A stretch of DNA of 64,000 nt from an uncultured Chloroflexia bacterium (GCA_963707215.1 CAVPPB010000001.1:96001-160000), one strand, 5' to 3'. Shown: positions 3,424-19,942, numbered from the stretch's first letter. A program made the numbers and translations. The notes: generated by a model from the letters alone, not told the origin.

Positions 3424-4143
3424 TCAGGCGCGCTCGCCGGCTCGACGCAGGAGGACCAGGGCCACGCCACCGCCGATCAGGGCGACCGAGCCGATCGGGA
3501 TCCACGGCATCCCGGGGCCATCGCTTTGCTGGCCGGCGGCGTCCACGCCGTTGGGGCGGACCTCAGCGGGACCCTCGTCCGTACCGCCGCCGCCCATAGG
3601 AGCAGGCGGCGGGGTAGCGGCCGTGTCGACCTCCGGGGCCGCCGGCTCACCGCCGAACTCGCCCTGCGTGTCCCGCTCCGAGCCCGCGCCGGCACCGTCA
3701 CCGACAGGCGCTCCGACGGTGGACAGGATGACCTGCGGGTCCGGGACGACGGCCGTGAGCATGAGGCCCGCGAGCCCGACCGTCGCCAGCCCGACGCCCA
3801 GGGGCCGGGCGAAGGCGAGGCGAGGAGCCCCGAAGCCCGCGACGATGCGTCGCCAGCCGCCGGGCCGGAGCCGCACGGCCTGCTCCTCGGTCAGCCGGAA
3901 GTCACGGGGTCGTACCGGCGACGGCAGGGCGCGGGTCGCCGAGGCGATCGCGACGAGATCCACGTAGACCTCCCCGCAGGCCGGACAGGCGGCCACCAGG
4001 GATCGAGCGTCGTCGAGCTCCGGGCCGGTCAGGTCGTCGGCCGAAAGCGCGGCCACCAGGGTGAGGTCGTGGTCGGTGTGGAGGGTCGTGGTCACGTTCG
4101 TCTGACGCCCCATCTCCGGTCCCGGTTCCCGCCGCCCGCTCAT
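3424..4143 (-). CDS. Putative membrane anti-sigma factor
   Basis: Coupled to ECF sigma stop; CPAC zinc-knuckle-like motif, PRDFRLT, two hydrophobic segments. Confidence 0.65.
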   Translation of the reverse strand: MSGRREPGPEMGRQTNVTTTLHTDHDLTLVAALSADDLTGPELDDARSLVAACPACGEVYVDLVAIASATRALPSPVRPRDFRLTEEQAVRLRPGGWRRIVAGFGAPRLAFARPLGVGLATVGLAGLMLTAVVPDPQVILSTVGAPVGDGAGAGSERDTQGEFGGEPAAPEVDTAATPPPAPMGGGGTDEGPAEVRPNGVDAAGQQSDGPGMPWIPIGSVALIGGGVALVLLRRAGERA

Positions 4144-4805
4144 CGGTCGCCCCGGAAGAGATCGAGCCGCGGCTCGAGGACGGCGCGCAGGGCCAGCCGT
4201 CCCCGGTGGATCCGTGACTTCACGGTCCCCAGCGAGACGCCGGTGAGCTCGGCGATCTCGGCATAGTCGTAGCCCTCGACGTCGAAGAGGACGATCGCCG
4301 TTCGCTGGTCGGCCCCGATCCTGGCCAGGGCATCGGCCAGGGCGCGGGATCGCTCGGCCGCGACCACGACCCGCTCCGGATCCTCCGACGCGTCGGCCGG
4401 TGGCTGCCAGCTCTCGTCCTCCAGCTCCGGGTACGGCTGAGCGGGCCGCCGCTTGCGGTAGCGCTGGGTGTCCATGGCCGCGTTGATGGCGATCCGCCCC
4501 AGCCATGACCGGACGCTGCCGCCGCGGAAGGACCGCAGGTTCCGGTAGGCGCTGAAGAACGCCTCCTGGACGGCGTCGGCGGCCTGGTCCCGGTCCGGAA
4601 CGAGCCGGGCGACCAGCCCGTAGAGGTGGTCCTGGTGGAGCTCGACGAGGTCGTTGAAGGCGTCGAGGTCGCCGTCCCTGGCACGCTCGACGAGCCACAG
4701 GTCGCGACGCCGGGCCACGTCGTCGCCGGGCGAGGGCACGCGACGATCGTCAGCCAGCGGCGGGTCCCTCCGGACGGGGATGGCAAGGCGGGCCGAGTCT
4801 AGCAT
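4140..4805 (-). CDS. ECF RNA polymerase sigma factor
   Basis: DAVQEAF, SWLGRIAIN, YAEIAELTGVSLGTVKSRIHRGR region 2 and 4 motifs. Confidence 0.92.
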   Translation of the reverse strand: MLDSARLAIPVRRDPPLADDRRVPSPGDDVARRRDLWLVERARDGDLDAFNDLVELHQDHLYGLVARLVPDRDQAADAVQEAFFSAYRNLRSFRGGSVRSWLGRIAINAAMDTQRYRKRRPAQPYPELEDESWQPPADASEDPERVVVAAERSRALADALARIGADQRTAIVLFDVEGYDYAEIAELTGVSLGTVKSRIHRGRLALRAVLEPRLDLFRGDR

Positions 4806-4920
4806 CGGGTCTGCGCTACTCGACGCGCCTCGGCGCGCCTCGGTTCCCTGGCTCGTCCTCGACGCGGCCCGGAGCCCCCGGCCGCGGGCACGGGCAGACG
4901 GGCGCTACGATGAGCGTCCG

Positions 4921-5007
4921 GCCGGAGTGGCGGAACTGGCAGACGCGTCGGTCTCAAACACCGATGAGGGCAACCTCGTGCGGGTTCAAATCCCGCCTCC
5001 GGCACCA
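4921..5007 (+). tRNA. tRNA-Leu (anticodon CAA)
   Basis: GCCGGAG/CTCCGGC acceptor stem, anticodon loop CTCAAAC, long variable arm, GGTTCAAATCC T-loop, encoded CCA. Confidence 0.95.
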
Positions 5008-5025
5008 GCGTTTCGTGCGTGAAGA

Positions 5026-5056
5026 GTGAGGGCCCGGCCGTTGGCCGGGCCCTCAC
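5026..5056 (+). terminator. Perfect 14-bp hairpin after tRNA
   Basis: GTGAGGGCCCGGCC-gtt-GGCCGGGCCCTCAC; no U-tract. Confidence 0.6.
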
Positions 5057-5154
5057 GACTGGCCGAGGTGTAGCCAAACTGAGTCTTGCTGACCACCACG
5101 GCCCTCGCTCCGGGCCGGCTGGCGCGATCTCGCTGACCCAGGGGGGAAGGCGAC

Positions 5155-5239
5155 CAGCCCACGGCCGGGCGACGGGGGCCGTCTACGGGCGCGCTGCCTC
5201 TTGCAGGACGCGTTACACGACGTCACCGTGCCCCCATGC
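5155..5239 (+). promoter_or_regulatory. Repeated leader R1 with putative sigma70 promoter (copy 1)
   Basis: TTGCAG-17nt-CACCGT; aligns with 6904-, 8257- and 12158- copies. Confidence 0.5.
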
Positions 5240-5314
5240 GCGGGGGGCAGTGACGCGCGGCCAATCGCCTACGGCCGCCGGGACCGCGCCGAGCCACTGG
5301 CGAGACCGACCCGC
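5240..5314 (+). ncRNA. c-di-GMP-II-like riboswitch variant, copy 1
   Basis: P1 GCGG/CCGC, UGA..GAG kink-turn, P3 stem, CGCC/GGCG pseudoknot, 3' GAGCCACTGGCGAGACCGACCCG. Confidence 0.75.
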
Positions 5315-5396
5315 TGGAAACCGGATCCGCAAGAGGACCGGCCAAGTTCGATCAGGCTGAGATGGGCCTTCGGCATCAGGCGGTGAGAGGACTGCG

Positions 5397-5765
5397 ATGA
5401 CGACTGAGCGATCTCGTCTGACCGCCGCACTGTCTCTGGCGGTCGCGGTCGTCGTGATCGTCGTCAGCCCGATGCTGCTCGACGCCCCGAACCCGCTGTC
5501 GACGCCCGCTGCGGTGATCGTCGCGGTCGGCTGTGGCGGTGCGTTGCTCGGTGGGCGTGGCGCTGAGTGGGTCGCGTTGGCCGTCAGCGTGGCCGGGCTC
5601 GTGTTGTCCGTCCTGTGGCTCTGGCTCGCGAGCGATGGCTTCGGGCAGGGCACGCCCTGGTGGGACGACATCGTCGAGGCCGCGATCCTCGCTGCGGCAT
5701 TCCTCGTCGCGCTCGCCTTCCTGCTGCTTGCACGTCGGCAACGAGCACGGTCGCGAGCGACCTGA
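5397..5765 (+). CDS. Small 4-TM membrane protein
   Basis: GAGGA RBS, four hydrophobic segments, basic tail. Confidence 0.7.
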   Translation: MTTERSRLTAALSLAVAVVVIVVSPMLLDAPNPLSTPAAVIVAVGCGGALLGGRGAEWVALAVSVAGLVLSVLWLWLASDGFGQGTPWWDDIVEAAILAAAFLVALAFLLLARRQRARSRAT

Positions 5766-5971
5766 CCGCGCACAGCACCACCGCCGTCAAGGTCGCCTGG
5801 CAGCGTCTTCGGGTAGCCCGCGACGAGCGCGGCACTAACCCTCGCCCCAGCCCCGGCTCCACGTGTCGCCCTCGATCACGGCCTCGCCGTCCAGAGGAGC
5901 GGCAGCGTCCGGGGTCAGTTCGGGACCGCCGCCTCTAGGCAGTAGGTAGGCGTCACGCATCCTCCTGGCCT

Positions 5972-6050
5972 GGGCGAGAGGCCCTGACGCGCGGCCAATC
6001 GCCTCTGCCCGCCGGGACCGCGCCGAGCCACTGGCGAGACCGACCCGCCC
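5972..6050 (+). ncRNA. c-di-GMP-II-like riboswitch variant, copy 2 (no clear downstream gene)
   Basis: Near-identical to copy 1 core; P1 GGGCG/CGCCC. Confidence 0.7.
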
Positions 6051-6221
6051 TAGGTTTAGGGGAGGGCGCCCCGATGGGCAGATCCTCGTGGGCGGCCGTG
6101 CCAGCCGCCCTCACACCTCCGGTGGCCGCCGGTCTCCTGCTCGCGACGGTAGTGGTGGGCGCCGAGTACCGACCCCCCGGGTCCTGACCAGCCCGCGGCC
6201 GGGCGACGGGAGCCGCTCGGC

Positions 6222-6824
6222 CTACCGAGCGCGACGATGTCGCTGGGAGCGTCGGTTGGCCGTCAACCCGAGCCCGGCCATCAGCGCCAGGAGACCAAGC
6301 CCGGCCGGTCCCCGCGGCGGTGATGGCTGACGGGCCGCGGCGGCGGTATCGGTCTCTGGCAGGACGGCGAAGCGATGGGTGACCGTGACCGAGTAGTCGC
6401 TCGAGCCCATGACGACGACATCGCTCCAGATGACCCGCTGCCCGTAGGTCTCGCCGCCATCGGCATCGGCATAGAAGCCGATCGACCAGCGGTACTCGAC
6501 CCGCGCCCCAGGCGGGACGGGGAACGACACCACATAGATCCGGCCGTTCTCGCAGGGCGGTGGCAGGTAGGGACCTCCCGGGTAGTCGGCCTGGACCGAC
6601 TTTGGCTCGCAGATGGTGGTGCCGGACGTTCCCTCCTCGTGCATGAAGAAGACGTTCGCCGGGACGGGGCCTCTGAGGGCCAGGCGCAGCGTCAAGGTGG
6701 GCCAGTCCGACTCGGCGGTCGCGACCGCGACGGTCTGGGCCGCGGCTGACGGCACCTGGCTCAACAGCAGGGCGACGCCGCACGCAAGTAGGGCCAACCG
6801 CGCCGTCCATCGATGAGCGCGCAT
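6222..6824 (-). CDS. Secreted protein with LPETD-TM-basic C-terminal sorting-like signal
   Basis: GGAGG RBS, signal peptide ending AAA-Q, C-terminal LPETD...GLGLLALMAGLGL...RRSQRHRRAR. Confidence 0.75.
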   Translation of the reverse strand: MRAHRWTARLALLACGVALLLSQVPSAAAQTVAVATAESDWPTLTLRLALRGPVPANVFFMHEEGTSGTTICEPKSVQADYPGGPYLPPPCENGRIYVVSFPVPPGARVEYRWSIGFYADADGGETYGQRVIWSDVVVMGSSDYSVTVTHRFAVLPETDTAAAARQPSPPRGPAGLGLLALMAGLGLTANRRSQRHRRAR

Positions 6825-6903
6825 CGCTCGTCATCCCTCCGGATGAGTTGAAGCCATGGCTTGAAGCTCGTGGATGAGACGCGCACAGCCGGCCAGCGTG
6901 AGC

Positions 6904-7003
6904 ACAAGCCCACAGCCACCCCCGCCGGCCGCTCAGGCCCTCGGTCTCTTGCCCGGTACGTTCCACGACCGGCACCCTCGACGCCATAGCGCGGGGGGTG
7001 CTG
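6904..7003 (+). repeat. Repeated leader R1 with truncated aptamer
   Basis: TCAGGCCCTCGG..TTGCCC..GTACGTTCCACGACCGGCACCCT..CCATAGCGCGGGGGG matches 8285-8352. Confidence 0.8.
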
Positions 7004-7057
7004 CGCTCTCTCCTGCCAGCCCGCCTCGCGACGAGGCGTCCCGGGAGGCAGCGACAG

Positions 7058-7596
7058 TGCGCGGCATCCTGCGAACGATTGCCGTCACGCTTGCGACCGC
7101 GACGCTCACCGGGGTCGCTCTTCTCGGCGATGCTCCGCCCGCCTAGGGCGAGGAGCTTGGGCTGGGCGGGCCGAGCCGCGTCGTCGGCGTGACATACGTG
7201 CAGCCACAGTGCGGCGATGCCATCTTCGCCGGCGACTCGGTCGGCTCGGTTCGCATCCAGAGGCCCTTCTCGGAGGCCCACCAGAACTACGACGGGATCT
7301 ACATCACATATAGGTTCAAGGGGCCGTGGTGCCTGATCCAGCCCGACCTGTTCTGGTCGATCTACCTGACGACCGATACGCACCCGAGAACCAGGCTCCA
7401 GAACTTCAACATGCCCTGCAGCGGCTCTCGGGATCGCGAGTACGAGTCGACCATCTATCTCCGATACCTTGGCATCGACTACACAGAGGCTGAGCTCTTC
7501 GCCGAGACCGTGACATTCGAGGTCCACCTCGAGGGCGACGACGGCTTCTCGGGGATCTGGGCGCCCTTCATGGTTGGATCGAGTCCGAGCGAGTAG
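7058..7596 (+). pseudogene. Secreted protein interrupted by in-frame TAG at 7144-7146
   Basis: GGAGG RBS, GTG start, signal peptide MRGILRTIAVTLATATLTGVALLGDAPPA*, same frame continues into ORF 7189-7596. Confidence 0.6.
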
Positions 7597-7599
7597 CCC

Positions 7600-7722
7600 G
7601 CCGCTCCACCGCCCGCGCCTCCAGCCCGTCCCAGAACGCCGAGGTGGCGCGCTGGCGGCCCTCGGCCCCGGCCTGCGCCTCCCAAGGCCGCCACGGCCGC
7701 CTCGGCCGCCTCCGGGGGCGTA
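7600..7722 (-). repeat. Repeat R2 copy A (frameshifted remnant of small ORF)
   Basis: CCAGAACGCCGAGGTG..CGGCCCTCGGC..CTCCCA shared with 9632, 10810, 13992. Confidence 0.75.
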
Positions 7723-7733
7723 TCCGGCTGGAC

Positions 7734-7783
7734 GAGATCGCTATCCGGCCACGGAGCCGGGGGCGAGCGACACCCTAGGTGGT
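7734..7783 (+). repeat. Repeat R3 copy A
   Basis: GAGATCGCTA.{3}GGCCACGGAGCCGGGG..AGCGACACCC matches reverse complement of 13042-13089. Confidence 0.75.
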
Positions 7784-8215
7784 TCACCTGGTCGAGAGCC
7801 ACCATCCGGCGGCGCACCCGGCGGAATAGGCGAGCACCCCGGCTGTGCCCGCGATGAGCCAGTAGGGGTAGAGGTCGGGGTCGACCCGGCCGACGACGAG
7901 GGTCCACAGGTGGGGAAAGACGGTAAAGGCAAGCCAGCCGCCGAGGGCACCCGCGATCGCGGCCCAGATCGTCCGGCCACCCCACCGGGCAGTGGCTGCC
8001 CCGACCATGACGGCCAGCAGGGGCGGAAGGGCGAAGAGCACCAGCGCGCCGAAGCTGAGCATGAGGGCCGGAAGCTCGAAGAGCGCCGCCCAGCCGGCCA
8101 CGGCGACCGCCGTTCCGATCGAGCCGATCACAAAGGCCCGGCCGGTGCCGATCGCCATGGCCCAACGGTCGCCGTCACCGCTGCCTGCGAGCGGGCTGAC
8201 CCCTTGTGACTTCAT
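7784..8215 (-). CDS. Small 4-TM membrane protein (start uncertain, 8215 or 8158)
   Basis: Hydrophobic C-terminal half of ORF 7784-8524. Confidence 0.6.
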   Translation of the reverse strand: MKSQGVSPLAGSGDGDRWAMAIGTGRAFVIGSIGTAVAVAGWAALFELPALMLSFGALVLFALPPLLAVMVGAATARWGGRTIWAAIAGALGGWLAFTVFPHLWTLVVGRVDPDLYPYWLIAGTAGVLAYSAGCAAGWWLSTR

Positions 8216-8256
8216 CTCGGAAGGGTTGACGCCGCAGGCGACGAACCGTTGCACGA

Positions 8257-8344
8257 GCCAGCCCGCGGCCAGGCGACGGCGTCCGTTCAGGCCCTCGGCC
8301 TCTAGACCCGTACGTTCCGCGACCGGCACCCTGACCGCCATAGC
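8257..8344 (+). promoter_or_regulatory. Repeated leader R1 with putative promoter
   Basis: Near-identical to 12158-12246; TAGACC-18nt-CACCCT. Confidence 0.6.
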
Positions 8345-8423
8345 GCGGGGGGCGCTGACGCACGGTCGATGAGCCACGGCCGCCCAAGACGACCCTGCTG
8401 AGCCACTGGCGAGACCGACCCGC
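8345..8423 (+). ncRNA. c-di-GMP-II-like riboswitch variant, copy 3
   Basis: GCGGGGGGCGCTGACGCACGGTCG...CGGCCGCC...CGACCCTGCTGAGCCACTGGCGAGACCGACCCGC. Confidence 0.75.
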
Positions 8424-8448
8424 CTGCCCGAGAGATGGAGTCTTGCGC

Positions 8449-9603
8449 ATGCACAGGCGACTGTTCGCCGGCGCCATCGCGGTCTTGGCAACGCTGGCAA
8501 TCGCTTCGCCGGCGGTCGCTGCACCGCCGGCCAACGACACCTACTCCGGCCGGGAGTTGCTCCTCGACCCGCTGCCGATCATGGTCATGGCGGATACCAC
8601 CGAGGCAACCACTGACGCAGACGACGCCGAGCTGGATGTCCAGTGCGGTGCGTCGGCGGTCGATGCTAGCGTGTGGTACGAGTACACGCCCACGCTGGCC
8701 GGCGACTACGAGATCAACACCCTCGCCTCGGACTACAGCGTCGGCGCGATCGTGGCCATCGGCGGCCCGGGCGGCTGGACCCTGTTGAGTTGCGGTCCCG
8801 GGACCATCCCCTTCACTGCGATCGCCGGGGAGACGTACGCGATCCTGATCTTCGACGACCAGACCGACGGAGGCGGCAACGGCGGCTATCTGGAGTTCTC
8901 GATTGCGCCGGTGGTGCCGAACGAGCCGCCGGTGGCCGACCCGAACGGGCCGTACCTGGGCGCGGTTGGTGCCGCGATCTCGTTTGACGGCACTCGATCG
9001 TCGGACCCCGAAGGCGACACGCTCACCTACGACTGGGACTGGGGCGACGGCACGTCCTCTACTGACGTTGGGTCCACGCCGACCCACACCTACGATGCCG
9101 CCGGCATCTACGACGTGTGTCTGACGGTGACCGACCCATCCGGCGCATCGGGTAGGGCCTGCACGTCGGCCGTCGTCTACGACCCGTCGGCTGGGTTCGT
9201 TACCGGCGGCGGCTGGATCGACTCGGTGGCCGGCGCATACGTGCCCGACCCGACGCTGACAGGCAAGGCGACCTTCGGGTTCGTGTCCAAGTACACGAAG
9301 GGCGCCGCTACCCCGACCGGCAACACCGAATTCGTGTTCCAGACCGCCGACCTCAACTTCCATGCGACGAGCTACGACTGGCTGGTCGTGACCGGCAGCG
9401 ACTACGCCCGCTACAAGGGCATCGGCACGATCAACGGCACGGGCGACTACAAGTTCCTGCTGTGGGCCGGCGACAACGACCCGGACACGTTCCGGATCAA
9501 GATCTGGACCGAAGACGCGGCCGGCGTCGAGGCCGTCGTCTATGACAACGGGATGGATCAGCCCATCTCGGGCGGCAGCATCGTCGTCCACACCAAGAGG
9601 TAG
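8449..9603 (+). CDS. Secreted PKD-domain protein
   Basis: Signal peptide; PKD motifs FDGTRSSDPEGD..YDWDWGDG..HTYDAAGIYDVCLTVTD; C-terminal GFVTGGGWI domain. Confidence 0.88.
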   Translation: MHRRLFAGAIAVLATLAIASPAVAAPPANDTYSGRELLLDPLPIMVMADTTEATTDADDAELDVQCGASAVDASVWYEYTPTLAGDYEINTLASDYSVGAIVAIGGPGGWTLLSCGPGTIPFTAIAGETYAILIFDDQTDGGGNGGYLEFSIAPVVPNEPPVADPNGPYLGAVGAAISFDGTRSSDPEGDTLTYDWDWGDGTSSTDVGSTPTHTYDAAGIYDVCLTVTDPSGASGRACTSAVVYDPSAGFVTGGGWIDSVAGAYVPDPTLTGKATFGFVSKYTKGAATPTGNTEFVFQTADLNFHATSYDWLVVTGSDYARYKGIGTINGTGDYKFLLWAGDNDPDTFRIKIWTEDAAGVEAVVYDNGMDQPISGGSIVVHTKR

Positions 9604-9725
9604 GAGCGACCGCCCACGCGTCCAGATCCGCCCAGAACGCCGAGGTGCCGCGCTCACGGCCCTCGGCGTCCCCTCGCACCTCCCAGGCCATCATCGCCGC
9701 CACGGCCTCCCCGGCAGCCTCCTGG
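9604..9725 (-). repeat. Repeat R2 copy B
   Basis: Minus strand reads AWEVRGDAEGRERGTSAFWADLDAW, homologous to copies A and C. Confidence 0.75.
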
Positions 9726-10000
9726 GTGCATGCGCGGTCGCGTGGACGGGGCGACCCTGGAAGACCGCGCTCTACTCCGGGCGCTCTCCTGGCTCCTCAG
9801 CCCGGAGGCCTCGGGCCTGCTCGCCTCCCACGGGTCCGGTGGTCGCATCCCGAGCCCAGTTGGTCGGATCCATCAGGCGAGAGAACCGCGCACCCAGCGC
9901 AGCCAGGCCGCCAGCACTCAGCGCGGCTAGCTCCTCATCGGCTTGGGCGCGATCCGCCTGCTGCTGCAGTGCTTCGTCGACGGCGATGAGCGCTTCGGAC

Positions 10001-10225
10001 ATGGCCTCGGCCGACCAGCCGTTCACGATCCGCTTCGCCAACAACGACGCTGGGGTCCCCCACAACGCCGAGATCAAGGACGGATCCGGAGCGACGGTCT
10101 TCCTGGGCGAGATCTTCAACGGCGTCGACACCCGCGACTATGCCGTGCCGGCGCTGCCGGCCGGGACCTACACCTTCGTCTGCACGGTCCACCCGAACAT
10201 GACCGGCACCCTGACGATCGGATAG
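10001..10225 (+). pseudogene. Cupredoxin-domain C-terminal fragment
   Basis: PHN and YTFVCTVHPNMTGTL type-1 copper ligands; no signal peptide or N-terminus. Confidence 0.7.
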
Positions 10226-10280
10226 GCGACCAGCCCGTCCCCTGGGTTGCCCTCGACGTGACACTTGGATACGAATCCAC

Positions 10281-10703
10281 GTGCACGGGAGGATCGCCTT
10301 GGAGATCGCGCTCGCCGGCTTGCTCACCCTGGCGGTGCTGACGCCGGTCGCCATGTACGTGCTTCGGCGTCTCGATGAGCCAGGGCCGTCGGCGTACGCC
10401 GATCCGATGGATTCCGTCTACAGAGCGAACGCGACGGTCGATGAGCTGCTACCGACGTATGCGGCCCTCGGGTACGCGGTAGTCTCCCGCTCCGAGTTCC
10501 AGGCTCACCTCTTCCGGACCGAACCAAGCCACAAGAGGGACTCGAGCCGGAACCGACCACGAGAGATTCGACTCCACACTGACTTCACCGACAATGTCTG
10601 GGCCGACGGTCGGGGCGCCGTCTGCCCTGTATGCGGCCATCCGCGCCGTGGCGAATTCCGCTGCGCGAGGTGCAAGTCGAGCGAGACGGGACTTCCAGCG
10701 TGA
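10281..10703 (+). CDS. Hypothetical membrane-anchored protein with C-terminal zinc ribbon
   Basis: N-terminal TM; CPVC...CARC. Confidence 0.55.
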   Translation: MHGRIALEIALAGLLTLAVLTPVAMYVLRRLDEPGPSAYADPMDSVYRANATVDELLPTYAALGYAVVSRSEFQAHLFRTEPSHKRDSSRNRPREIRLHTDFTDNVWADGRGAVCPVCGHPRRGEFRCARCKSSETGLPA

Positions 10704-10784
10704 TGGACCTTCGCTGGAGGGTGACTGGCGGTTCACCAAGCGGGAGTCGCGACCGGCCAAGGCGGCTGCCAAGGGCTTCCACCT

Positions 10785-10856
10785 AGCCTCCCGCCACGGC
10801 CCCCGCTTCCCAGTACGCCCCATCGCCGCGCTGGCGGCCCTCGGCCTCGGCCAGAG
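10785..10856 (-). repeat. Repeat R2 copy D (short, degenerate)
   Basis: CCAGTACGCC..GCGCTGGCGGCCCTCGGCC matches copy A. Confidence 0.55.
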
Positions 10857-10934
10857 CGGATCCGTCGTTTCGTCGTTCATCAGGGGCATCGTAGTCTGGC
10901 GCGGGCTCGGCCAGCCGGAGACGGGGGCGGCCGA

Positions 10935-11528
10935 CTAGACCTTCCCGACCGCGGCCGTGCCCACCGAGATGGTCGGTTCGCGGAACGGGCTGCGGTCCGC
11001 GAGCCGGGTGAACGTCACCGTGACGAGCACGGAGCCCTTCAGGAAGTACCCACGCTCCAGATCGTCGACCCAGAGGGCGCCATCGCCGATGTCGAGCGCC
11101 TCCGCTCGGTCAGCCAGCGCCTGCTTGGTGTCGGCGAACGTGTTGGCCCCGTTGCCGGGCTCGACCATCACCGACAAGCCACCCCAGTCCTCGACCCAGC
11201 GACATTCGGTCACATTCGGATCCTGGTCGGATCCGAGCCGGTTGAGGTCACCGTCAGTGGCGCTGGCGGCGTCCAGGCCCAGGGCCGCGGCGACGTCAGC
11301 GGCGGTGACCAGCTGACACGCGGTCAGGTCGGTGCCCGGGGCCGCCGGGGCACCCCCACTCTCGTTCTCGCCGGTGCCCTCGCTCGCCTCGGCCTCGGGC
11401 GATGACGTGGCCGAGGCCCCACTCGGGGCGCTGGTGGTCGCCGCACCGCCGCAGCCCGCGGTCGCGAGCAGCACGCTCAGGACGATCGTGGCGGTCGTAC
11501 GACCGCCGATTACGTGGACGCTCAACAT
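10935..11528 (-). CDS. Putative lipoprotein (DUF3558-like)
   Basis: Lipobox TAGC, Ser/Ala linker, ACQLVTAADV and paired Cys. Confidence 0.7.
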   Translation of the reverse strand: MLSVHVIGGRTTATIVLSVLLATAGCGGAATTSAPSGASATSSPEAEASEGTGENESGGAPAAPGTDLTACQLVTAADVAAALGLDAASATDGDLNRLGSDQDPNVTECRWVEDWGGLSVMVEPGNGANTFADTKQALADRAEALDIGDGALWVDDLERGYFLKGSVLVTVTFTRLADRSPFREPTISVGTAAVGKV

Positions 11529-11750
11529 CGCGCCACCCCCTTCTCCTGCATCGTGGGCGGCACCAGTCGAAGCGCCGCCGGCCGGGACCTACGGAGAGCT
11601 GCCTCGACCTCGCAGGCGTCCCTCGAATCGTACGACCAAGCACCAGCCCCTCCAGGGCCTAACACCCGGTGGCGAGGTGACCGACAGGCCGTTCCGGGCG
11701 CAACACTCGAGCCCGATGGGCGTCATCCCGCTGATCGAAGGAAGGTGCCG

Positions 11751-12158
11751 ATGTCCCTTGGCTGTTCCGGGCGGGCGGCGATCTTCGCGCTCGTCCTCCT
11801 CGTCGGCGCGCTGCCCGCTGGGGTGATCGCGGGAGCCGTGCCAGGCCGGATCGTTGGGCTGCTACAGCGGCGTGGGGCCGTTCCTCCTCCTCGTGGTGGT
11901 CGTGGTTGCCGCGGCTCTGATCGCGGCCTCACTCCCCTGGGCGAGAGGACGAGCCCGGATGGACGCTGGCCGCTGCATCGCCCGCGACCGCAACGGCTTC
12001 GAGGGCATCCTCGAGGCCGGCCACGTCGGTCCCCATGCGGCCTCCAGGGTGATCCGGAGCTGGGTCGACGAGCCCACGCCGCCCACCGAGAAGGAGTCGG
12101 CAGGCGTACTGGCCGAGGAAGCCACGACGGCAACCCCGGACCAACCCCACGGTCCTGA
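11751..12158 (+). pseudogene. Frameshifted or degraded small membrane protein
   Basis: RBS and ATG 11751 with hydrophobic N-terminus, continuing in another frame (GPFLLLVVVVVAAALIAA). Confidence 0.35.
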
Positions 12159-12246
12159 CAAGCCCACGACCGGGCGACGCCGTCCGTTCAGGCCCTCGGC
12201 CTCTAGACCCGTACGTTCCACGACCGGCACCCTGACCGCCATGGCA
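12158..12246 (+). promoter_or_regulatory. Repeated leader R1 with putative promoter
   Basis: CGTCCGTTCAGGCCCTCGGCCTCTAGACCCGTACGTTCC identical to 8280-8318. Confidence 0.6.
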
Positions 12247-12323
12247 CGGGGGGCGCTGACGCACGGTCCCAGAGCTACGGCCGCCTGAGCGGACCGTGCC
12301 GAGCCACTGGCGAGACCGACCCG
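12247..12323 (+). ncRNA. c-di-GMP-II-like riboswitch variant, copy 4
   Basis: Perfect 9-bp P3 GCACGGTCC/GGACCGTGC, pseudoknot, conserved 3' 23-mer. Confidence 0.8.
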
Positions 12324-12368
12324 CTGGACCCATCCGCAACGACGCGGAAGCTCGGGAGGAACACGGTC

Positions 12369-13022
12369 ATGGGTTCGGTCTCGCACTTGCGGCGCTGGCG
12401 CCTCGTCGTCGGCATCATGATCCTGAGCCTATTCGCGATCCCGGCAGCGGGCATCGTGGTCGGCGCCACGACGCCCTTCCAGCAGGTCATCGTGACCAAC
12501 CCCGAGGAGAGTCCAATCCCCGTGTCGCTGACGGGCAGCAACGCGATCTCGGGCACCGTCACTGTCGGCAACCTGCCCGCGACCCAGCCCGTCTCGGGGA
12601 CGGTAAACGTGGGGAACAGCCCGACGGTGCAACTCGCCTCCGACTCGATAGTGGCCGTCGTCAACCCGACAGACGACCAGCCGCTTCTGGTTCAGGAGGT
12701 TGCTTCGGCGACGCCGTCACCCGCGGAGATCCTGCCACCGACTGGCAACACCATCATCGGCCCTGCCCGGCTCCAGATGGACTCCGTTGGCACATATCCA
12801 ATCCTGAGGGGCACGGTGTCGCTCGACTTCTGCATCACGGTCGTTCTCCTCGATGCCAACGGCTACGCGGAATTCCAAGCGAACCCGACCAGTGATTCCA
12901 CCTGGTACGGCATCTGGCCCGATGGCCCATTGGCAAGGTGTGAGGCGAGCAAGCAGAACGCCAACATCGACAATCATGTGGCCGGGACAGCTCTGGTCTA
13001 TCGCATCGACAGAATCCCCTAA
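12369..13022 (+). CDS. Secreted or membrane-anchored hypothetical protein
   Basis: GGAGGA RBS, N-terminal hydrophobic segment, repeated SGTV(T/N)VGN; visibly lower GC. Confidence 0.75.
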   Translation: MGSVSHLRRWRLVVGIMILSLFAIPAAGIVVGATTPFQQVIVTNPEESPIPVSLTGSNAISGTVTVGNLPATQPVSGTVNVGNSPTVQLASDSIVAVVNPTDDQPLLVQEVASATPSPAEILPPTGNTIIGPARLQMDSVGTYPILRGTVSLDFCITVVLLDANGYAEFQANPTSDSTWYGIWPDGPLARCEASKQNANIDNHVAGTALVYRIDRIP

Positions 13023-13041
13023 CGATTGGGGCCGAGCCGTC

Positions 13042-13089
13042 ACCTCCCAGGGGTGTCGCTCCCCGGCTCCGTGGCCCGCTAGCGATCTC
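13042..13089 (-). repeat. Repeat R3 copy B
   Basis: Reverse complement aligns to 7734-7783. Confidence 0.75.
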
Positions 13090-13322
13090 CCACCGAGTAG
13101 CACCGCGACGACAACGTCCTGCCTGCGCCACGGTTCGGACATAGCCCGACGCTAGCCCTTGCTCAGAGGCACGCCGATGCGGATGTCCCGCAACCAGGGC
13201 GACCGGCCCAGGGAAGGGACGCGGGCCGTTGCGTCGACGCACCGGGTTCGCAGGCCCTCAGGCCGGCTGGTCGAGGATCGCGGGCTGCGTCTGGAGCACC
13301 GGTGGCCTACGCTCGGGGCATC

Positions 13323-13402
13323 GGCGGGAGGCACTGACGCAAGATCCGAGCCCACGGCCGCCGCACCGGACCGCGCCGAGCCACTGGCGAGACCGACCCG
13401 CC
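13323..13402 (+). ncRNA. c-di-GMP-II-like riboswitch variant, copy 5
   Basis: GGCGGGAGGCACTGACGC...CGGCCGCC...GAGCCACTGGCGAGACCGACCCGCC; P3 partly degraded. Confidence 0.7.
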
Positions 13403-13425
13403 CGTCTTACCCTGGAGGTGGCGGT

Positions 13426-13977
13426 ATCCGCAGGATCGGTCTCGTCGCGCTGGTGGTGCTCGCCTTGATGGCGTCCGCGACGATCGTCTCGGCCGACAAC
13501 GGCAAGGCGGTCCCCGGCTGGAACTCGAACTCCAGCAAGTACACGGCCATCTCGGTCGCCAACCCCAACGACCCGAGCGAGGTGTCGGCCACCCTGGTCC
13601 GCGAGCGAACCTCCGACGCGGTCCTCGACCAGCACATCACGGCCCTCAACAACTGTGACTGGGCCGGGCTGATGCAGCAGTACCCCGATCAGTACGAGCT
13701 GCGACTCCCCGGCGGGGTACTCGTCTCCGGTCGGGAGGAAGCGGCCGAGACGTTCGCCGGCTTCGTCAAGCCATACACCGAGGGCGGGCTCTGCGGGATC
13801 ATCTTCAGCGAGGTCTCCCGCGATGTCGTCGCCGGCACCCTGGCGGTGAGCTGGGTCGCCGATGCCCCCTTCCTGGCTGAGCCGTACTACGGCGCGGACG
13901 CCTACATCACCGACGACGGCCTGATGGTCTCGATGGTCAGCACCTTCGACGGCGCGGAGCTGGTCTTCGCTCCCTAG
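13426..13977 (+). CDS. Secreted SnoaL/NTF2-like protein (start uncertain)
   Basis: Signal peptide RRIGLVALVVLALMASATIVSA; VLDQHITALN..D...LM..Y NTF2-like pattern. Confidence 0.7.
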   Translation: MRRIGLVALVVLALMASATIVSADNGKAVPGWNSNSSKYTAISVANPNDPSEVSATLVRERTSDAVLDQHITALNNCDWAGLMQQYPDQYELRLPGGVLVSGREEAAETFAGFVKPYTEGGLCGIIFSEVSRDVVAGTLAVSWVADAPFLAEPYYGADAYITDDGLMVSMVSTFDGAELVFAP

Positions 13978-14159
13978 GCCGTCCTGGACGCGAAGAACGC
14001 CGGGGTGCCGCGCCCTCGGCCCTCGGCCTCAGCCAGCCCCTCCCAGGCCGCTACGGCCTCCTCGGCCGCCTCCGGGGGCATCCGGGCGACATCGCGCAAC
14101 CGGGCGACTTGGGCGGCCCGGGGGGCCTGGTGGATGCGCTCGGGATCGCGACGTCGCAT
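13974..14159 (-). CDS. 61-aa small hypothetical protein, the most complete copy (C) of repeat R2
   Basis: MRRRDPERIHQAPRAAQVARLRDVARMPPEAAEEAVAAWEGLAEAEGRGRGTPAFFASRTA; stop overlaps convergent gene at CTAG. Confidence 0.5.
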   Translation of the reverse strand: MRRRDPERIHQAPRAAQVARLRDVARMPPEAAEEAVAAWEGLAEAEGRGRGTPAFFASRTA

Positions 14160-14264
14160 GGCGGCGCGGTCGGGCCCGGGGGTTGACCTGCCGCTTGACG
14201 CGAGGCGGACGATCCCATCAGCGGCGACCTGCCCCGGGCATCGACGATCGACGAGGACCCTTCG

Positions 14265-14660
14265 ATGGACGTGCGACGGATCGGCTTCGTGGGGACGCGG
14301 ACCGACCACTTCTCCGAGACCACCCGGTTCTTTCGCGACGTCCTCGGGCTGGCCACGTACTACGAGCGGCCCGACTTCGTGATGCTCGCGCTGCCCGGCG
14401 CCGAACACGATTTCGTGGAGATCATCGGTCCCGACGCAGAGGGCTCGGAGTTCCAGGCCGCCACCTACACGACGGGCCCGGTGGTCTCGTTCGAGGTCAG
14501 CGACCTGGTCGCCGCCCGGGACGAGCTCGAGGCGGCGGGCGTCGAGTTGCTCGACGACATCACCTGGTCGCGCAGCATCGCCGGCTTCGGCTGGTTCCAC
14601 TTCCGGGGACCGGACGGCAACGTCTACGGGATGCAGGGCTCCCGGGCCAGCGGCGGCTGA
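14265..14660 (+). CDS. VOC/glyoxalase family protein
   Basis: FFRDVLGL, FEVSDL, FRGPDGNVY motifs. Confidence 0.85.
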   Translation: MDVRRIGFVGTRTDHFSETTRFFRDVLGLATYYERPDFVMLALPGAEHDFVEIIGPDAEGSEFQAATYTTGPVVSFEVSDLVAARDELEAAGVELLDDITWSRSIAGFGWFHFRGPDGNVYGMQGSRASGG

Positions 14661-14786
14661 GGCCCGCTTGTACCTGGGCGAGCAGGGACTGGGTCGGGGG
14701 CGACCGGCCGCTTCGCCGGGGCGGGGCGCTGATCCGCCCGCCTGATCCACGGTCCGCAGCCGGCCAGCCCGGACATCAGCGCGCGA

Positions 14787-15263
14787 CTAGCGAGCCAGGC
14801 GGACCCTCGGACCGTCGGTCCCGGCTCGCCAGGACTCGACGACGTGGGCGTCCCGGGTCTCGTTGAGGCGCACCAGCGAGGCGTCCTCGAGCTCGATCCG
14901 GAAGAGTGCGAGGCCGCCCGGACCCAGGTCATGCGGGATCCGTGCCACGAATTCGTCGAGCGCAGGGCCCCCGGTGACCTCGACGGCCCGACCGTGCAGC
15001 TTCGCCTCCCCGTCGGTCGCGGCGGCCTCCGCCCCGGCGCTGTGGAGTGACATCCGGGGATCCCGCCGAAGGTCCGCAGCCTTCATCGACTCCGGCATCC
15101 CCAGCCAGAGCTCGCCGTCGGCGAACGTCGGGACCACGCCGCTGATCCGCGGGAACCCGTCGGCCCGAAGCGAACCCAGCAGCGCATGGCTGCCCGACTC
15201 CAGGCGCGCCCTCACAGCCGCCGCCAGGTCCGGAGCGGAACGTTCGAAGCCTGCCCACGACAT
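14787..15263 (-). CDS. Pyridoxamine 5'-phosphate oxidase-like protein
   Basis: LGSLRADGFPRISGV and KAADLRRDPR motifs. Confidence 0.8.
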   Translation of the reverse strand: MSWAGFERSAPDLAAAVRARLESGSHALLGSLRADGFPRISGVVPTFADGELWLGMPESMKAADLRRDPRMSLHSAGAEAAATDGEAKLHGRAVEVTGGPALDEFVARIPHDLGPGGLALFRIELEDASLVRLNETRDAHVVESWRAGTDGPRVRLAR

Positions 15264-15435
15264 CACGACCGAGTCTACCGCCCGGCCGGAGCGTCAGCTC
15301 CAGATGGCATGTCCCACGCGGCCGCCTCGCTCCGGCGTCGGTCGCTCGTGGAGCGACGGGCCTTTGTGACAGAAGTCCCTAGGCGACCCTCCCTGCGACC
15401 CGGAGCATCGCGACAACCGTAGCCGGAGGGACTTG

Positions 15436-16869
15436 ATGACCGAGACCGTGATCGGACCTGTGGGCGGGGGAATCGACTCGGAGGCCGCCCTGGTGGACGG
15501 ATCACGGATCGCGGTGATCGGCGGTGGGCCGGCGGGATCGCTGTTCACCTACTTCCTGCTCGACATGGCCGAGCGGGTCGACACCCGCCTCGACGTCGAC
15601 ATCTACGAGCCGCGCGTCTTCTCCAAGGCCGGAGCGGTCGGCTGCAACATGTGCGGCGGGATCATCTCCGAGTCGCTCGTCCAGAACCTCGCGGTCGACG
15701 GTGTCTGGCTCTCCACCGACGTGGTCCAGCGCGGCATCGACTCCTACGTGCTCCACACGGACGTCGGCAGCGTCCGGATCGCGACCCCCAACGACGAGAT
15801 GCGGATCGGGGCCGTCCATCGCGGCGGCGGACCGCGGGACGTCACCGAGACCAAGTGGGAGTCGTTCGACCAGCACCTGATCGACAGCGCGATCGAGCGC
15901 GGCGCGAAGTTCATCAACGCCCGCGTCGAGGACGTCGGCCGCGCCGACGGTCGGCCGACGATCCAGGTCAAGGGAGGCGAGCCCGTCCCGTACGACCTCG
16001 TCGTCGTCGCGACCGGCGTCAACACCTCGATCCTCAAGATGTTCGAGAGCATCGGGATCGGCTACGAGCGGCCCAAGCTCACCAAGACGCTCATCCGCGA
16101 GTACTACCTGGGCACCGACGTGATCAACGAGGCGATCGGCACCTCGATGCACGTGTTCCTGCTCAACATCCCGCGCCTCGAGTTCGCCGCCCTGATCCCG
16201 AAGGGCGACTACGTGACCATGTGCCTGCTGGGCGAGGACATCGACAACGATCTCGCGGACGCCTTCGCGGCAGCGCCCGAGGTCCGGGCGGTCATGCCCG
16301 AGGGCTGGGACTCGGAGGCCAAGAGCTGTCAGTGCCTGCCGCACATCAACATCCACGGGGTGGAGAAGCCGTACGCCGACCGGGTGGTCTTCATCGGCGA
16401 CAGCGGCATCACCCGCCTGTACAAGGACGGCATCGGCGCGGCCTACCGGACCGCCAAGGCAGCCGCCCGGACGGCCCTCTTCGAGGGCGTCTCGGAGCGG
16501 GCGTTCCGGGAGCACTACATGCCGGTCTGCCAGTCCATCCGCGGCGACAACCGGATCGGTGAGTACGCCTTCGTCCTGACCCGCGTGGCCCAGCGCCTCC
16601 GGATCATGCGTCGCGCGATCATCGCCATCGCCCGCGACGAGCAGACGACCGGCCGTCGGCCGCGGCTCAGCGGGATCCTTTGGGACATCTTCTCCGGCAG
16701 CGCGCCGTACAGCGACATCTTCCGGCGGATGTTCGACCCGATGCTCGCCGTTCGTGGCGTCGTCGCGATGCCGGGGGTCCTCGTGTCGACCGTGCGCGGC
16801 TCGAGCGCGGCGCCCCCGGCGACCGCGCCGCCACCAGCAGGACCTGGATCCCAGGAGGTGGGCTCATGA
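15436..16869 (+). CDS. FAD-dependent oxidoreductase (geranylgeranyl-reductase-like)
   Basis: VIGGGPAG, CNMCGG, FIGDSG...DGIGAA motifs. Confidence 0.8.
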   Translation: MTETVIGPVGGGIDSEAALVDGSRIAVIGGGPAGSLFTYFLLDMAERVDTRLDVDIYEPRVFSKAGAVGCNMCGGIISESLVQNLAVDGVWLSTDVVQRGIDSYVLHTDVGSVRIATPNDEMRIGAVHRGGGPRDVTETKWESFDQHLIDSAIERGAKFINARVEDVGRADGRPTIQVKGGEPVPYDLVVVATGVNTSILKMFESIGIGYERPKLTKTLIREYYLGTDVINEAIGTSMHVFLLNIPRLEFAALIPKGDYVTMCLLGEDIDNDLADAFAAAPEVRAVMPEGWDSEAKSCQCLPHINIHGVEKPYADRVVFIGDSGITRLYKDGIGAAYRTAKAAARTALFEGVSERAFREHYMPVCQSIRGDNRIGEYAFVLTRVAQRLRIMRRAIIAIARDEQTTGRRPRLSGILWDIFSGSAPYSDIFRRMFDPMLAVRGVVAMPGVLVSTVRGSSAAPPATAPPPAGPGSQEVGS

Positions 16870-17273
16870 GCGAGGCGGCCCTCGGACGCTTCTACGAGGA
16901 CGGCGAGGTCATCGTCCGGCAGGGCGATGTGGGCGAGTGCATGTTCGTCATCCAGGACGGCGAGGTCGAGATCGTCCGCGAGGAGGACGGGCACGAGATC
17001 CACGTCGGATCGGCCGGCCGCAACGAGGTCCTCGGCGAGATGGCGATCTTCGACCGCCAGCCCAGGTCGGCGACGATCAAGGCCAAGGGCCGTGCCCGGG
17101 TGCTCACCCTCGACAAGCGGAACTTCCTGCGGCGGATCAACGAGGATCCGTCCCTCGCCTTCCGGATGGTCGAGACGATGTCGCACCGCGTCCGGGAGCT
17201 GAACGACCAGGTCGTCGCGCTGCAGGCCCAGCTCGACCAGGGCGACGGGCAACGTGGGCCGGGCGAGGCCTGA
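16866..17273 (+). CDS. Standalone cyclic-nucleotide-binding domain protein
   Basis: IVRQGD, LGEMAIFDRQPRSAT phosphate-binding cassette; ATGA overlap; no HTH. Confidence 0.88.
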   Translation: MSEAALGRFYEDGEVIVRQGDVGECMFVIQDGEVEIVREEDGHEIHVGSAGRNEVLGEMAIFDRQPRSATIKAKGRARVLTLDKRNFLRRINEDPSLAFRMVETMSHRVRELNDQVVALQAQLDQGDGQRGPGEA

Positions 17274-17303
17274 CCGGCGGAGCGCGCCGACGAGCCTGGC
17301 TGC

Positions 17304-18176
17304 CTAGTAGGTGCCGTAGCCCGAGATCGCCAGCGAGCGCGGTGGCTCGACGCTGTCCGACAGGAGCAGCAGGCCCGGCGGAGCGGTCAGCCGCAGCCCC
17401 GAGTCGATCGCCACCCGGACGAGCGACCGGGAGGACCCCGGGATCATGAGTGTCGCCGATGGCCCGCGGCCGAGCTCGGCCCGGAGCGCTGCCGCGGCAC
17501 CGACCTCGTCGAGCCCGCCGAGCGGCCCGATCTTGCCGCTCGGCCAGCGGTACGAGTAGGCGACGGGTTCGCCGTCGCGTCGCCACAGCGTGGGGGCCGC
17601 CTGGGTCGCCCAGTACTCGTGGTCGACCGCGCGGTCGAAGCCGTAGACAGCTTGGTCGAGTCGTGCGAGCGCCGCCGAGTCCGGCTCCCCCGCAACCAGC
17701 CTCGGCGGCCCGTCGACCGCCGCCGTTCCCCCGAAGCCCAGGATCGGCGTGATCGGTAGCATCCCGTGCTTCGTGTACAGGGCATTCGATATCGGCTGGA
17801 TCGCGTCGCTGATCGTCATCCGCTGGCGCGGCGCCCCGGCCATCGCGAGCCCGATCAGCCGACGACCGACGCCCTGCCCCTGGAAGGCGGGGTCGATGAA
17901 CAGCCCGGCCAGGAACCAGGCATCGCCGCGGACCCAGGCCGCCGAGTAGCCCACGACCCGACCCTCGGACTCGGCCACGAAGCAGCGGTCAGCGTCGTTC
18001 CGCAGGAAGTGACGGAAGCCCGGCGCCAGTGCGTCGACCGGGGGCGGCGTCGCCCATCCGAAGCCGTGCCGGTCGAGCAGCTCGCCCTCCGCGGCGAGGA
18101 AGGCAGCGTGCTGGCCGCCGATGTCGCCGTCGGTGGCTGCCCGGTACGAGACACCTGATGCGGTCGAAGCGCTCAT
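17304..18176 (-). CDS. GNAT-family N-acetyltransferase
   Basis: LFIDPAFQGQGVGRRL acetyl-CoA motif. Confidence 0.85.
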   Translation of the reverse strand: MSASTASGVSYRAATDGDIGGQHAAFLAAEGELLDRHGFGWATPPPVDALAPGFRHFLRNDADRCFVAESEGRVVGYSAAWVRGDAWFLAGLFIDPAFQGQGVGRRLIGLAMAGAPRQRMTISDAIQPISNALYTKHGMLPITPILGFGGTAAVDGPPRLVAGEPDSAALARLDQAVYGFDRAVDHEYWATQAAPTLWRRDGEPVAYSYRWPSGKIGPLGGLDEVGAAAALRAELGRGPSATLMIPGSSRSLVRVAIDSGLRLTAPPGLLLLSDSVEPPRSLAISGYGTY

Positions 18177-18363
18177 CGGGAACCCCTCCATCGATCCGGC
18201 GAGGTGAAGCGTACGGCAGCCACCCACCGGCAGGCGGCCGCCGACCGCCGAGACCGGCGTCCCGGGGGAGGCGCGGAGGTCGACCCGTCCGTGCGTGGAC
18301 GGGTCGACGTGTCGTCTCGGACGGTGCCAGGGCCTCGGCGAGCGACGCCTCGGCTTGCCGGCC

Positions 18364-18885: not shown

Positions 18886-19159
18886 CCTTGACCCTCCGTG
18901 TTTGGTGGTGGGACCCACGGTGTGCCGGGTCGCGTCGCGGGACCATCGCTTCGGGACGAGGACCGGGCGGGACGGATGACGTAGCCGATCGAGGCAAGCA
19001 CGTTCCTGACCTCGGGCCCTAGACCCGCCCCGGACCAGGGAGGCACCCTGAGCCGGACGGGGCCCGGTCGCGCCGCTTCCTCTGTGGCTCCCGTCGCGTC
19101 GAGCCGAGCCGCCGGCGGCCCGCGACGCGCCGGCGTCGCGTCCCGGGAAGGACCGTGCC

Positions 19160-19864: not shown

Positions 19865-19942
19865 GGAGAGTCGGTCGCTCGCGGCAGACATGCGACGGCC
19901 CGCCGCTCGCGCGACGGGCCGTCGTTCCGGGGGCGGAGGTGG

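Follow-up and report, generated by a model that had tools for sequence, protein, structure and literature searches.

How does a row of unrelated small genes, several of them behind copies of one leader or riboswitch aptamer, come to stand directly behind a tRNA gene? The question is raised by positions 5155-14159 of the DNA analysed here, a stretch of 64,000 nucleotides from an uncultured Chloroflexia bacterium (G000:C1:96001-160000; hereafter the window, to which all coordinates without a contig prefix refer). The source genome, G000, is a metagenome-type assembly of 3,257,968 bases in 5 contigs and is 85% complete; contigs C1, C2 and C3 below are its contigs unless another genome is named. 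The sole other genome of the same genus available for comparison, G001, is 90% complete and lies in 330 contigs. A sequence-only reading of the window had proposed either a modular system in which surface-protein genes are swapped between conserved flanks or stacked remnants of elements that integrate at the tRNA gene. Its observation as a whole (tRNA gene, aptamers, repeats and layout) was confirmed, and a repeat finder recovered the repeats that it had called R1, R2 and R3 where it had seen them. Its interpretation stood in part: the layout is modular and mosaic and cargo differs from that of G001, but dedicated cassette machinery was not supported. Positions 5155-14159 belong to the repeat-rich half of an island that lies 3′ of tRNA-Leu(CAA) and measures ~17 kb (about 5008-22300). 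We put the probability at roughly 0.62 that the island is flexible and tRNA-linked, that riboswitches control its genes independently of one another, and that recombination among their conserved leaders has rebuilt it.

Riboswitch aptamers and the genes behind them

Aptamers were called with the Rfam covariance model RF03169 (c-di-GMP-II-GAG, clan CL00127; gathering score 40 bits). Five were detected downstream of the tRNA gene (R1, a conserved leader, and D7, one arm of a palindrome, are described below):

4921-5007, plus strand: tRNA-Leu(CAA), found with ARAGORN; left anchor of the island
5234-5320, plus strand: aptamer 1, 63.5 bits; has a leader of its own, not R1
5968-6054, plus strand: aptamer 2, 55.3 bits; 90% identical to aptamer 1 over 78 nt
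8339-8428, plus strand: aptamer 3, 57.5 bits
12240-12328, plus strand: aptamer 4, 62.3 bits
13318-13407, plus strand: aptamer 5, 57 bits; has a leader of its own, without R1 and without D7

All five score above the cut-off and keep the conserved aptamer core intact. At the density found across G000 (17 matches above the cut-off and three weaker ones) about 0.04 aptamers would be expected in 8.2 kb, so that five within this distance are far beyond chance (Poisson probability about 1e-9). The aptamer is also present in 19 of 24 other genera of the family, with arrays in several of them.

A co-oriented open reading frame (ORF) starts 5-85 nt past the aptamer in 19 of 20 cases genome-wide and in all five in the window. 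Most ORFs genome-wide begin 14-22 nt past the aptamer, a spacing that suggests control of translation initiation; a ribosome-binding site with a start codon at this distance is found in most units genome-wide, but in two of the five in the window. As judged by eye, most aptamer-led ORFs open with a signal-peptide-like or membrane segment. Their products are mostly small secreted or membrane proteins, including some with PKD and CWB2 domains, together with some enzymes, and their Pfam content is diverse. The earlier observation that unrelated genes each follow a leader and/or an aptamer holds: an aptamer precedes the genes at 5397, 8443 (or 8449), 12369 and 13426, and a leader without an aptamer precedes the gene at 7057. 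The aptamer at 5968 fronts only a 37-aa ORF that was absent from the earlier list of genes.

For the GAG variant no ligand is, to our knowledge, proven, and it counts as an orphan; a literature search on the variant's name returned just method papers and reviews. Both variants of this family can occur within one genus, as an aptamer of G001 (C270, L063, 3526-3608) best matches the GCG variant (RF03170) rather than GAG.

The R1 leader

R1, a block of ~75-90 nt, runs precisely up to the first position of the aptamer model. By BLAST, G000 holds 13 copies and G001 holds 17, with unrelated genes downstream; outside the genus, G003 gave a single marginal hit of 31 nt (E 4e-4), and the remaining 23 genomes searched gave nothing. 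Three copies, forming repeat family D4 with 85% identity, lie in the window:

6923-7003, plus strand: R1; the whole leader, which has no aptamer, spans 6923-7056
8277-8357, plus strand: R1; D7 right arm and R1 leader together span 8256-8345
12178-12258, plus strand: R1; D7 right arm and R1 leader together span 12157-12246

R1 without an aptamer, as at 6923-7003, recurs at at least five sister sites, and the leaders of the aptamers at 5234 and 13318 differ from R1. An alignment of 25 copies from the two species is near-uniformly conserved over ~75 nt and contains a palindrome (AGGCC-CTC-GGCCT), a TWGMCC-18 nt-CACCCT pair and, 7 nt further, CAT(A/G)G, followed by the first aptamer base. Its position and conservation suggest that R1 is a promoter with an upstream binding site.

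We propose that the island is made of one-gene units in which R1, often after a D7 right arm, would serve as promoter and the aptamer would begin at the predicted transcription start. Each gene would be switched independently by one small ligand, probably at translation, and the units would form part of a set of 17-20 genes of this kind across the genome, most of which encode secreted or membrane proteins and some of which encode enzymes. A terminator scan of 4900-14400 gave one terminator-like site, inside a gene. At C3:396937-397048 (L034), an R1 without an aptamer has an ATG exactly at the aptamer-start position; this ATG opens a membrane protein frame, and the mRNA of this R1-led ORF may be leaderless.

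The D7-long palindrome

D7-long is an imperfect palindrome of ~85 nt, whose right arm is the 30-nt repeat D7 and whose left arm is R3. Besides the two right arms that precede R1, the following parts lie in the island:

5098-5182, plus strand: full D7-long (left arm 5098-5139, right arm 5145-5182); first element after the tRNA gene, likewise in G001
6186-6215: D7 right arm; its start overlaps the TGA of a 37-aa mini-ORF
7728-7782: R3 (D7-long left arm), inverted
13051-13089: R3 (D7-long left arm), direct orientation

The last two are the R3 copies that the sequence-only reading had placed at 7784 and after 13022. They are inverted relative to each other, and their segments 7734-7762 and 13061-13089 are 93% complementary. 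In G000, seven copies are full and about 15 consist of the right arm alone, and every one lies in an island. The palindrome is genus-specific, with 18 matches each in G000 and G001 and two marginal ones among the 24 other genomes searched. Exact pattern scans hit only two contigs of one metagenome-assembled genome (MAG) record (Candidatus Limnocylindrales) and one 1-kb metagenome contig.

The spacing from the D7 right arm to the aptamer start is fixed at about 52-54 nt. Reading the sequence, we found GGCGAC as a direct repeat, 21 nt apart, in the right arm. About 20 aligned copies were also read by eye for the boxes of integron attC sites; many end in GCCGTT, and they show no conserved left AAC and no GTTRRRY. 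D7-long was also folded as a candidate structured RNA. Only the copy at 5098-5182 did clearly better than its shuffled versions (z -2.3); five other folds (its opposite strand and four sister copies) did not (z -0.94 to +0.03), in part because the folded segments had been cut differently.

The R2 small gene

R2 (repeat families D5, D6 and D8) is a minus-strand gene with a small product of about 62-84 aa. Its copies in the window are:

7598-7728, minus strand: R2, frame-broken
9609-9734, minus strand: R2, truncated
10808-10857, minus strand: weak remnant of R2
13974-14159, minus strand: R2 with an open 61-aa frame; convergent with the gene at 13426 and overlapping its stop

Most cargo genes had been said to end at or near an antisense copy of R2 or R3, and the R2 copies do start at 7598, 9609 and 13994, which is 2, 6 and 17 nt past the stops at 7596, 9603 and 13977, with the weak copy at 10808-10857. 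The idea that R2 is a functional end flank was not upheld: R2 is instead an opposite-strand small gene, conserved across genera and intact or broken depending on the copy. An intact R2 gene lies at C3:185859-186113.

R2 homologs with 33-54% identity occur in 9 of the 60 other genomes of the family, one of them 2.4 kb from the tRNA-Leu(CAA) of G012 and another beside an aptamer in G021. W38 and E39 are invariant in an alignment of 14 sequences. The protein has no Pfam or NCBIfam family, and a sequence search of the PDB yielded no relative (best E-value 0.1). Its AlphaFold model (predicted local distance difference test, pLDDT, 78) has four helices arranged as a small helical bundle and found no match better than E 8 with Foldseek. 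A tblastn search with the R2 peptide at a loose E-value returned low-complexity noise only. Just one close homolog is named, a hypothetical protein from a Candidatus Limnocylindrales MAG (Chloroflexota); together with the record that has exact D7 matches, it makes this the likely group of the source organism.

Mosaic patches shared with sister loci

Segments of the island match different loci elsewhere in G000 (I2, I4 and I5 denote sister islands):

6923-7048: 90% identical to C3:154753-154878; starts with R1 and stops just short of the start codon
7219-7728: 96% identical to C3:399559-399052, which adjoins the frame-broken I5 integrase; begins inside coding sequence
7728-7782: 100% identical over 55 nt to C3:185808-185862, inside a context of 76-77%
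7793-8427: gene, D7, R1 and aptamer, 77% identical to C3:182901-182263; stops at the aptamer 3′ edge, after which the cargo is unrelated
10003-10220: 97% identical to C2:327380-327163, the 3′ end of a core gene for a cox2-cupredoxin fusion
11937-12258: gene 3′ end, D7 and R1, 96% identical to C3:154512-154832; the match stops at the aptamer start

The gene at 7057-7596 is thus a chimera. Variable cargo between fixed flanks with sharp breakpoints had been named as support for the earlier reading; patches do end sharply at the leader, but several ends lie inside coding sequence. Joints at leaders and inside genes point to ectopic homologous and illegitimate recombination rather than to fixed site-specific joints. 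The truncated and decayed genes reported earlier were found again, as an in-frame TAG at 7144-7146, the cupredoxin fragment, and frame breaks in two R2 copies and in the gene at 11751. A similar cupredoxin piece, followed by D7 and R1, lies in G001 (C161:148-583). Public reads (one sediment run, 6% of sampled words) mapped on 4000-18000 in pieces of 151-252 nt, among which no joints were supported, so that they bear neither way on circles, variants or chimerism.

Sister islands, tRNA genes and recombinases

R1, D7-long, R2 and the aptamer recur at about ten other loci of G000. Among 19 repeat clusters, five are no more than 500 nt from a tRNA gene, where random placement gave a mean of 0.6 (one of 5000 placements reached five), and seven are no more than 2.5 kb away. 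By this random-placement test, the tRNA association suggested from the window is real genome-wide. Beside tRNA-Gly(CCC) stands a sister island of 4.7 kb without an integrase (C1:717584-722424, L037). Its content includes lipoprotein genes and a gene led by an aptamer, and on either side of it lies one copy of a perfect direct repeat, 44 nt long, of the 3′ half of that tRNA. Near other loci, two more 3′ fragments of tRNA-Gly and one 5′ fragment of tRNA-Pro were found. A search of the island studied here for copies of the tRNA-Leu 3′ end found none, and hence no attachment (att) repeat at its far border.

In line with the earlier reading, which saw no integrase, transposase or reverse transcriptase, none of these domains was detected in the ORFs scanned between 5 and 23 kb, and contig C1 has no match to PF00589. 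The whole of G000 has three PF00589 genes. Two are XerC/D-like, and the third is the frame-broken phage-type tyrosine integrase of I5, beside tRNA-Lys(CTT) at C3:399873-401097 (L034 7873-9097; three frames, two breaks). Integron-integrase models score 111-113 bits in G000 against a cut-off of 265. The genome gave zero matches for serine recombinase, Y1 (PF01797), rve, DDE, TnpB, IS110 and reverse transcriptase families. A search for a recombinase linked to the repeats, as had been suggested, found none; G001 has the repeats and no match to the I5 integrase. Of the repeated integration proposed at the tRNA gene, one part stood, as integrases do occur at this tRNA in relatives (in G013 an intact homolog lies next to tRNA-Leu(CAA)), but this island has neither an integrase nor a recombinase linked to its repeats.

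Leaders, D7 palindromes and R2 copies would provide the homology through which ectopic recombination, duplication and gene conversion act among the ~ten sister loci, many of them at tRNA genes where integrase-bearing elements would have landed. Such recombination would exchange sequence on either side of a leader and leave fragments and broken genes behind.

Two further observations concern these loci. In G001 (C191, L067, 809-1191), a D7 arm comes after tRNA-Leu(TAA), and behind this arm lies a 54-nt fragment similar to the 3′ half of tRNA-Leu(CAA). In island I4 of G000, a 455-aa ORF without a Pfam family (C3:184324-185691, L033 5324-6691) lies between D7-long and R1 on the opposite strand.

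Comparison with relatives

The extent of the island follows from its conserved neighbours: the TerB and 1348-aa genes, found here at 22390-28174, follow the tRNA within 1-2 kb in three other genera. In G011, G005 and G007 a gene of 1348 to 1424 aa lies at this distance from the tRNA, with a TerB-family gene between them in G011. No aptamer was found in the ~8-12 kb downstream of tRNA-Leu(CAA) in G005, G007, G011, G012 and G013.

The left flank of G001 is collinear up to the tRNA at 82% identity and continues with D7-long and R1 to the contig end. Its right flank (15354-16553, 92%) joins different DNA, and its glyoxalase gene stands at another locus. Within 5008-15400, DNA matches to G001 were limited to the glyoxalase gene, the 6222-6824 gene and the cupredoxin fragment, and the other nine cargo genes had none; these absences are soft, because G001 is 90% complete and in 330 contigs. 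The suggested comparison of cargo across relatives thus showed that cargo differs from that of G001.

Possible origins of the island

Several observations weigh against a flexible island rebuilt by recombination among conserved leaders. Full copies and lone right arms of D7 are co-oriented within each island (4 of 4 here, 4 of 4 in I2, 5 of 5 in I4 and 6 of 6 in I5). By our reading, D7 precedes a co-directional gene start in 13 of 21 cases and abuts a convergent gene end in 7 of 21, so that it keeps its border position whichever direction the neighbouring gene runs. Co-oriented copies at unit borders are not predicted by plain homologous recombination. A 35-nt D7 arm is 97-100% identical in a dozen copies across two species, and the near-uniform conservation of R1 over 75 nt exceeds the usual need of a promoter; concerted evolution, a binding protein or active spread could explain the extent of conservation in both. 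A scan of 4900-14400 for the sigma-70 consensus found no promoters, so that the assignment of R1 as a promoter leans on position and conservation. Within the genus there is a single, fragmented comparison genome (G001, 330 contigs). A recombinase could lie in the missing part of G000 and so have been missed, because the assembly is 85% complete. Some of the frame breaks and decay may also be assembly errors, because the conserved 1348-aa gene outside the island has two frame breaks as well, which stem either from its being a pseudogene or from indel errors of the assembly. The orientation, border position and conservation of D7, together with the conservation of R1, leave a small chance that a site-specific process is at work.

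If the region were a stack of integrative-element remnants, tyrosine-integrase elements would have hit tRNA-Leu(CAA) repeatedly, D7-long and R2 would be element ends, and integrases and att sites would have been lost. This would suit the position directly 3′ of the tRNA gene, where D7-long is the first element in both G000 and G001, as well as the broken integrase that I5 keeps at tRNA-Lys next to a 96% copy of 7219-7728, the 44-nt tRNA-Gly repeat around a sister island, the further tRNA-Gly and tRNA-Pro fragments near loci and the intact integrase homolog of G013 at tRNA-Leu(CAA). The GGCGAC repeats of the D7 right arm, too, would suit arm-type binding sites. We nevertheless consider this origin unlikely, as the island has no tRNA-Leu 3′ copy although its D7 copies are 93-100% conserved, and 5-22 kb contains no integrase remnant. 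In addition, G001 is equally rich in D7 and R1 without a match to the I5 integrase, a D7 array in G001 (C121) stands at a site without a tRNA or an att-like repeat, and recent patches end inside leaders and genes instead of at element ends. An integron-like exchange, with D7-long as recombination site and a trans-acting recombinase moving riboswitch-led units, would account for the co-orientation of D7 and its place at unit borders, for ~85-nt palindromes that are near-identical between copies and species and confined to islands of small genes of unknown function, and for the 55-nt segment that is 100% identical between two islands in a context of 76-77%. It is improbable all the same: no integron integrase was found and the best tyrosine recombinases are XerC/D-like, the seven other mobile-element enzyme families gave no match, and no GTTRRRY/RYYYAAC boxes were seen on reading the D7 copies. 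The fixed D7-aptamer spacing of ~52-54 nt fits part of a promoter region, D7 lies within rather than at the edge of the 77% block shared with a sister island, and the units have promoter-like leaders of their own and genes on both strands.

We give a similarly slim chance to D7-long being the site of an unrecognised Chloroflexota cassette-exchange system, with a recombinase encoded elsewhere or of an unknown family and R2 as a possible accessory factor; the present results fall short of showing a dedicated cassette system. A chimeric array, in which the repeats led the assembler to join unrelated pieces, is suggested by the metagenome-type assembly with repeats of 80-500 nt at 90-100% identity, by the two frame breaks of the nearby conserved gene and by a public run that covers short pieces only and bridges no junction. 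We regard such an artefact as very improbable, given that the same repeat families and arrays occur in the independent G001, with several leaders on single contigs, that aptamer arrays are also found in other genera, that the repeats are short relative to long reads and that the left flank stays collinear with that of relatives as far as the tRNA. An island of riboswitch-led genes rebuilt by recombination among conserved leaders is therefore the reading that we retain.

Genes of the island and its surroundings

The genes of the island and its conserved neighbours are as follows:

4140-4805, minus strand: ECF sigma gene; syntenic, together with tRNA-Leu(CAA), across the family
5397-5765, plus strand: cargo, 122-aa membrane protein with only weak, sub-threshold Pfam matches
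6074-6187, plus strand: 37-aa hydrophobic mini-ORF, the only frame behind aptamer 2; its TGA lies at the D7 right arm start
6222-6824, minus strand: 200-aa secreted protein without a Pfam family; 79% DNA match in G001, there also beside R1 and an aptamer
7057-7596, plus strand: chimeric cargo gene with the in-frame TAG
7784-8209, minus strand: 141-aa membrane protein, divergent from the next leader
8443-9603, plus strand: cargo, 386-aa secreted protein with a PKD domain (PF18911, 2.2e-22)
10003-10225, plus strand: captured fragment, 3′ end of the cox2-cupredoxin fusion gene, then a partial D7 start
10281-10703, plus strand: 140-aa ORF without a Pfam family
10935-11528, minus strand: 197-aa lipoprotein-like gene with a weak DUF3558 match below the curated cut-off
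11751-12156, plus strand: frame-broken membrane protein gene
12369-13022, plus strand: cargo, 217-aa protein with an N-terminal membrane segment and no Pfam family
13426-13977, plus strand: cargo, secreted protein with a weak SnoaL-like match; 50% identical to a paralog at C1:49575-51167 behind another R1
14265-22300: repeat-free remainder of the island, with glyoxalase-like, PNPOx-like, FAD oxidoreductase, cNMP-binding, GNAT, DUF2269 and multicopper oxidase genes
22390-22983: TerB gene, conserved neighbour on the right
24171-28174: 1348-aa gene, conserved neighbour on the right, with two frame breaks relative to relatives

Genes of the island thus lie on both strands, and its G+C content (0.64-0.74, against 0.68-0.77 outside) shows no clear shift in composition. 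The mini-ORF at 6074-6187 could encode a riboswitch-controlled micro-protein or be a remnant. The 12369-13022 protein has 81 database relatives, which have no Pfam family; the few that are named are hypothetical proteins. For the gene at 13426, no ATG, GTG or TTG was found ahead of the signal peptide (region examined, 13410-13430) and the frame is open from 13159; its start may be a non-canonical codon or reflect a sequence error. In the repeat-free half, 3 kb from the last aptamer, the ORF at 16680-17273 encodes a cyclic-nucleotide-binding domain (PF00027, 9.6e-23).

Relation to known systems and significance

The sequence-only reading knew of no described system with this layout. Its parts do have precedent, in riboswitch regulons, in the reused, riboswitch-carrying promoters treated in PMC3575422, and in tRNA-linked islands. 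Reused, putatively mobile promoters on which riboswitches could travel are described there by Matus-Garcia, Nijveen and van Passel (2012), and R1, with or without the aptamer, resembles them in being closely similar before unrelated genes, in 13 and 17 copies in two species. Here, by contrast, the copies cluster in tRNA-linked islands together with D7-long and R2, and patches end inside the leader, features that point to ectopic recombination and not to self-mobility. Canonical c-di-GMP-II riboswitches occur in tandem and before surface-protein genes in Firmicutes, according to PMC9481103. The aptamers described here share with that family the intact core, scores above the cut-off and a co-oriented position upstream of genes that they putatively regulate. 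They differ in forming separate one-gene units instead of tandem aptamers on a single leader, in their Chloroflexota-type host and in preceding genes for enzymes besides those for secreted proteins.

Like tRNA-linked integrative islands, the island lies directly 3′ of a tRNA gene and varies in content between relatives, and sister islands have an integrase or a tRNA 3′ repeat, with an integrase at the same tRNA in G013. Unlike them, it has no integrase, no att repeat and no clear shift in composition. Clusters of attC sites without an integrase (CALIN) are reportedly known alongside integron arrays from work of Cury and colleagues in 2016. The island recalls such arrays in that its genes are small and mostly without a known function and in that imperfect palindromes of ~85 nt, all pointing one way, stand between them, but it has no integron integrase, its units have promoter-like leaders of their own, its genes lie on both strands, and the palindromes are near-identical rather than cassette-specific. 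The repetitive extragenic palindromic elements known as REP and REPIN, which are named in PMC3575422 and PMC8049555, are another comparison. D7-long is likewise short, palindromic, intergenic and lineage-specific, but it has only about 18-22 copies, is confined to islands, and no RAYT/Y1 transposase was found in the 85% complete genome.

The list of genes behind the aptamer, 17-20 per genome with five within 8 kb here, may be of use in identifying the ligand of the GAG variant and in understanding its biology. The locus is a concrete, datable example of a promoter block and riboswitch module gaining unrelated genes, in which patch ends inside the leader mark the joints. If the D7 palindromes were truly recombination sites, the islands of this genus would represent a new kind of cassette array outside integrons.

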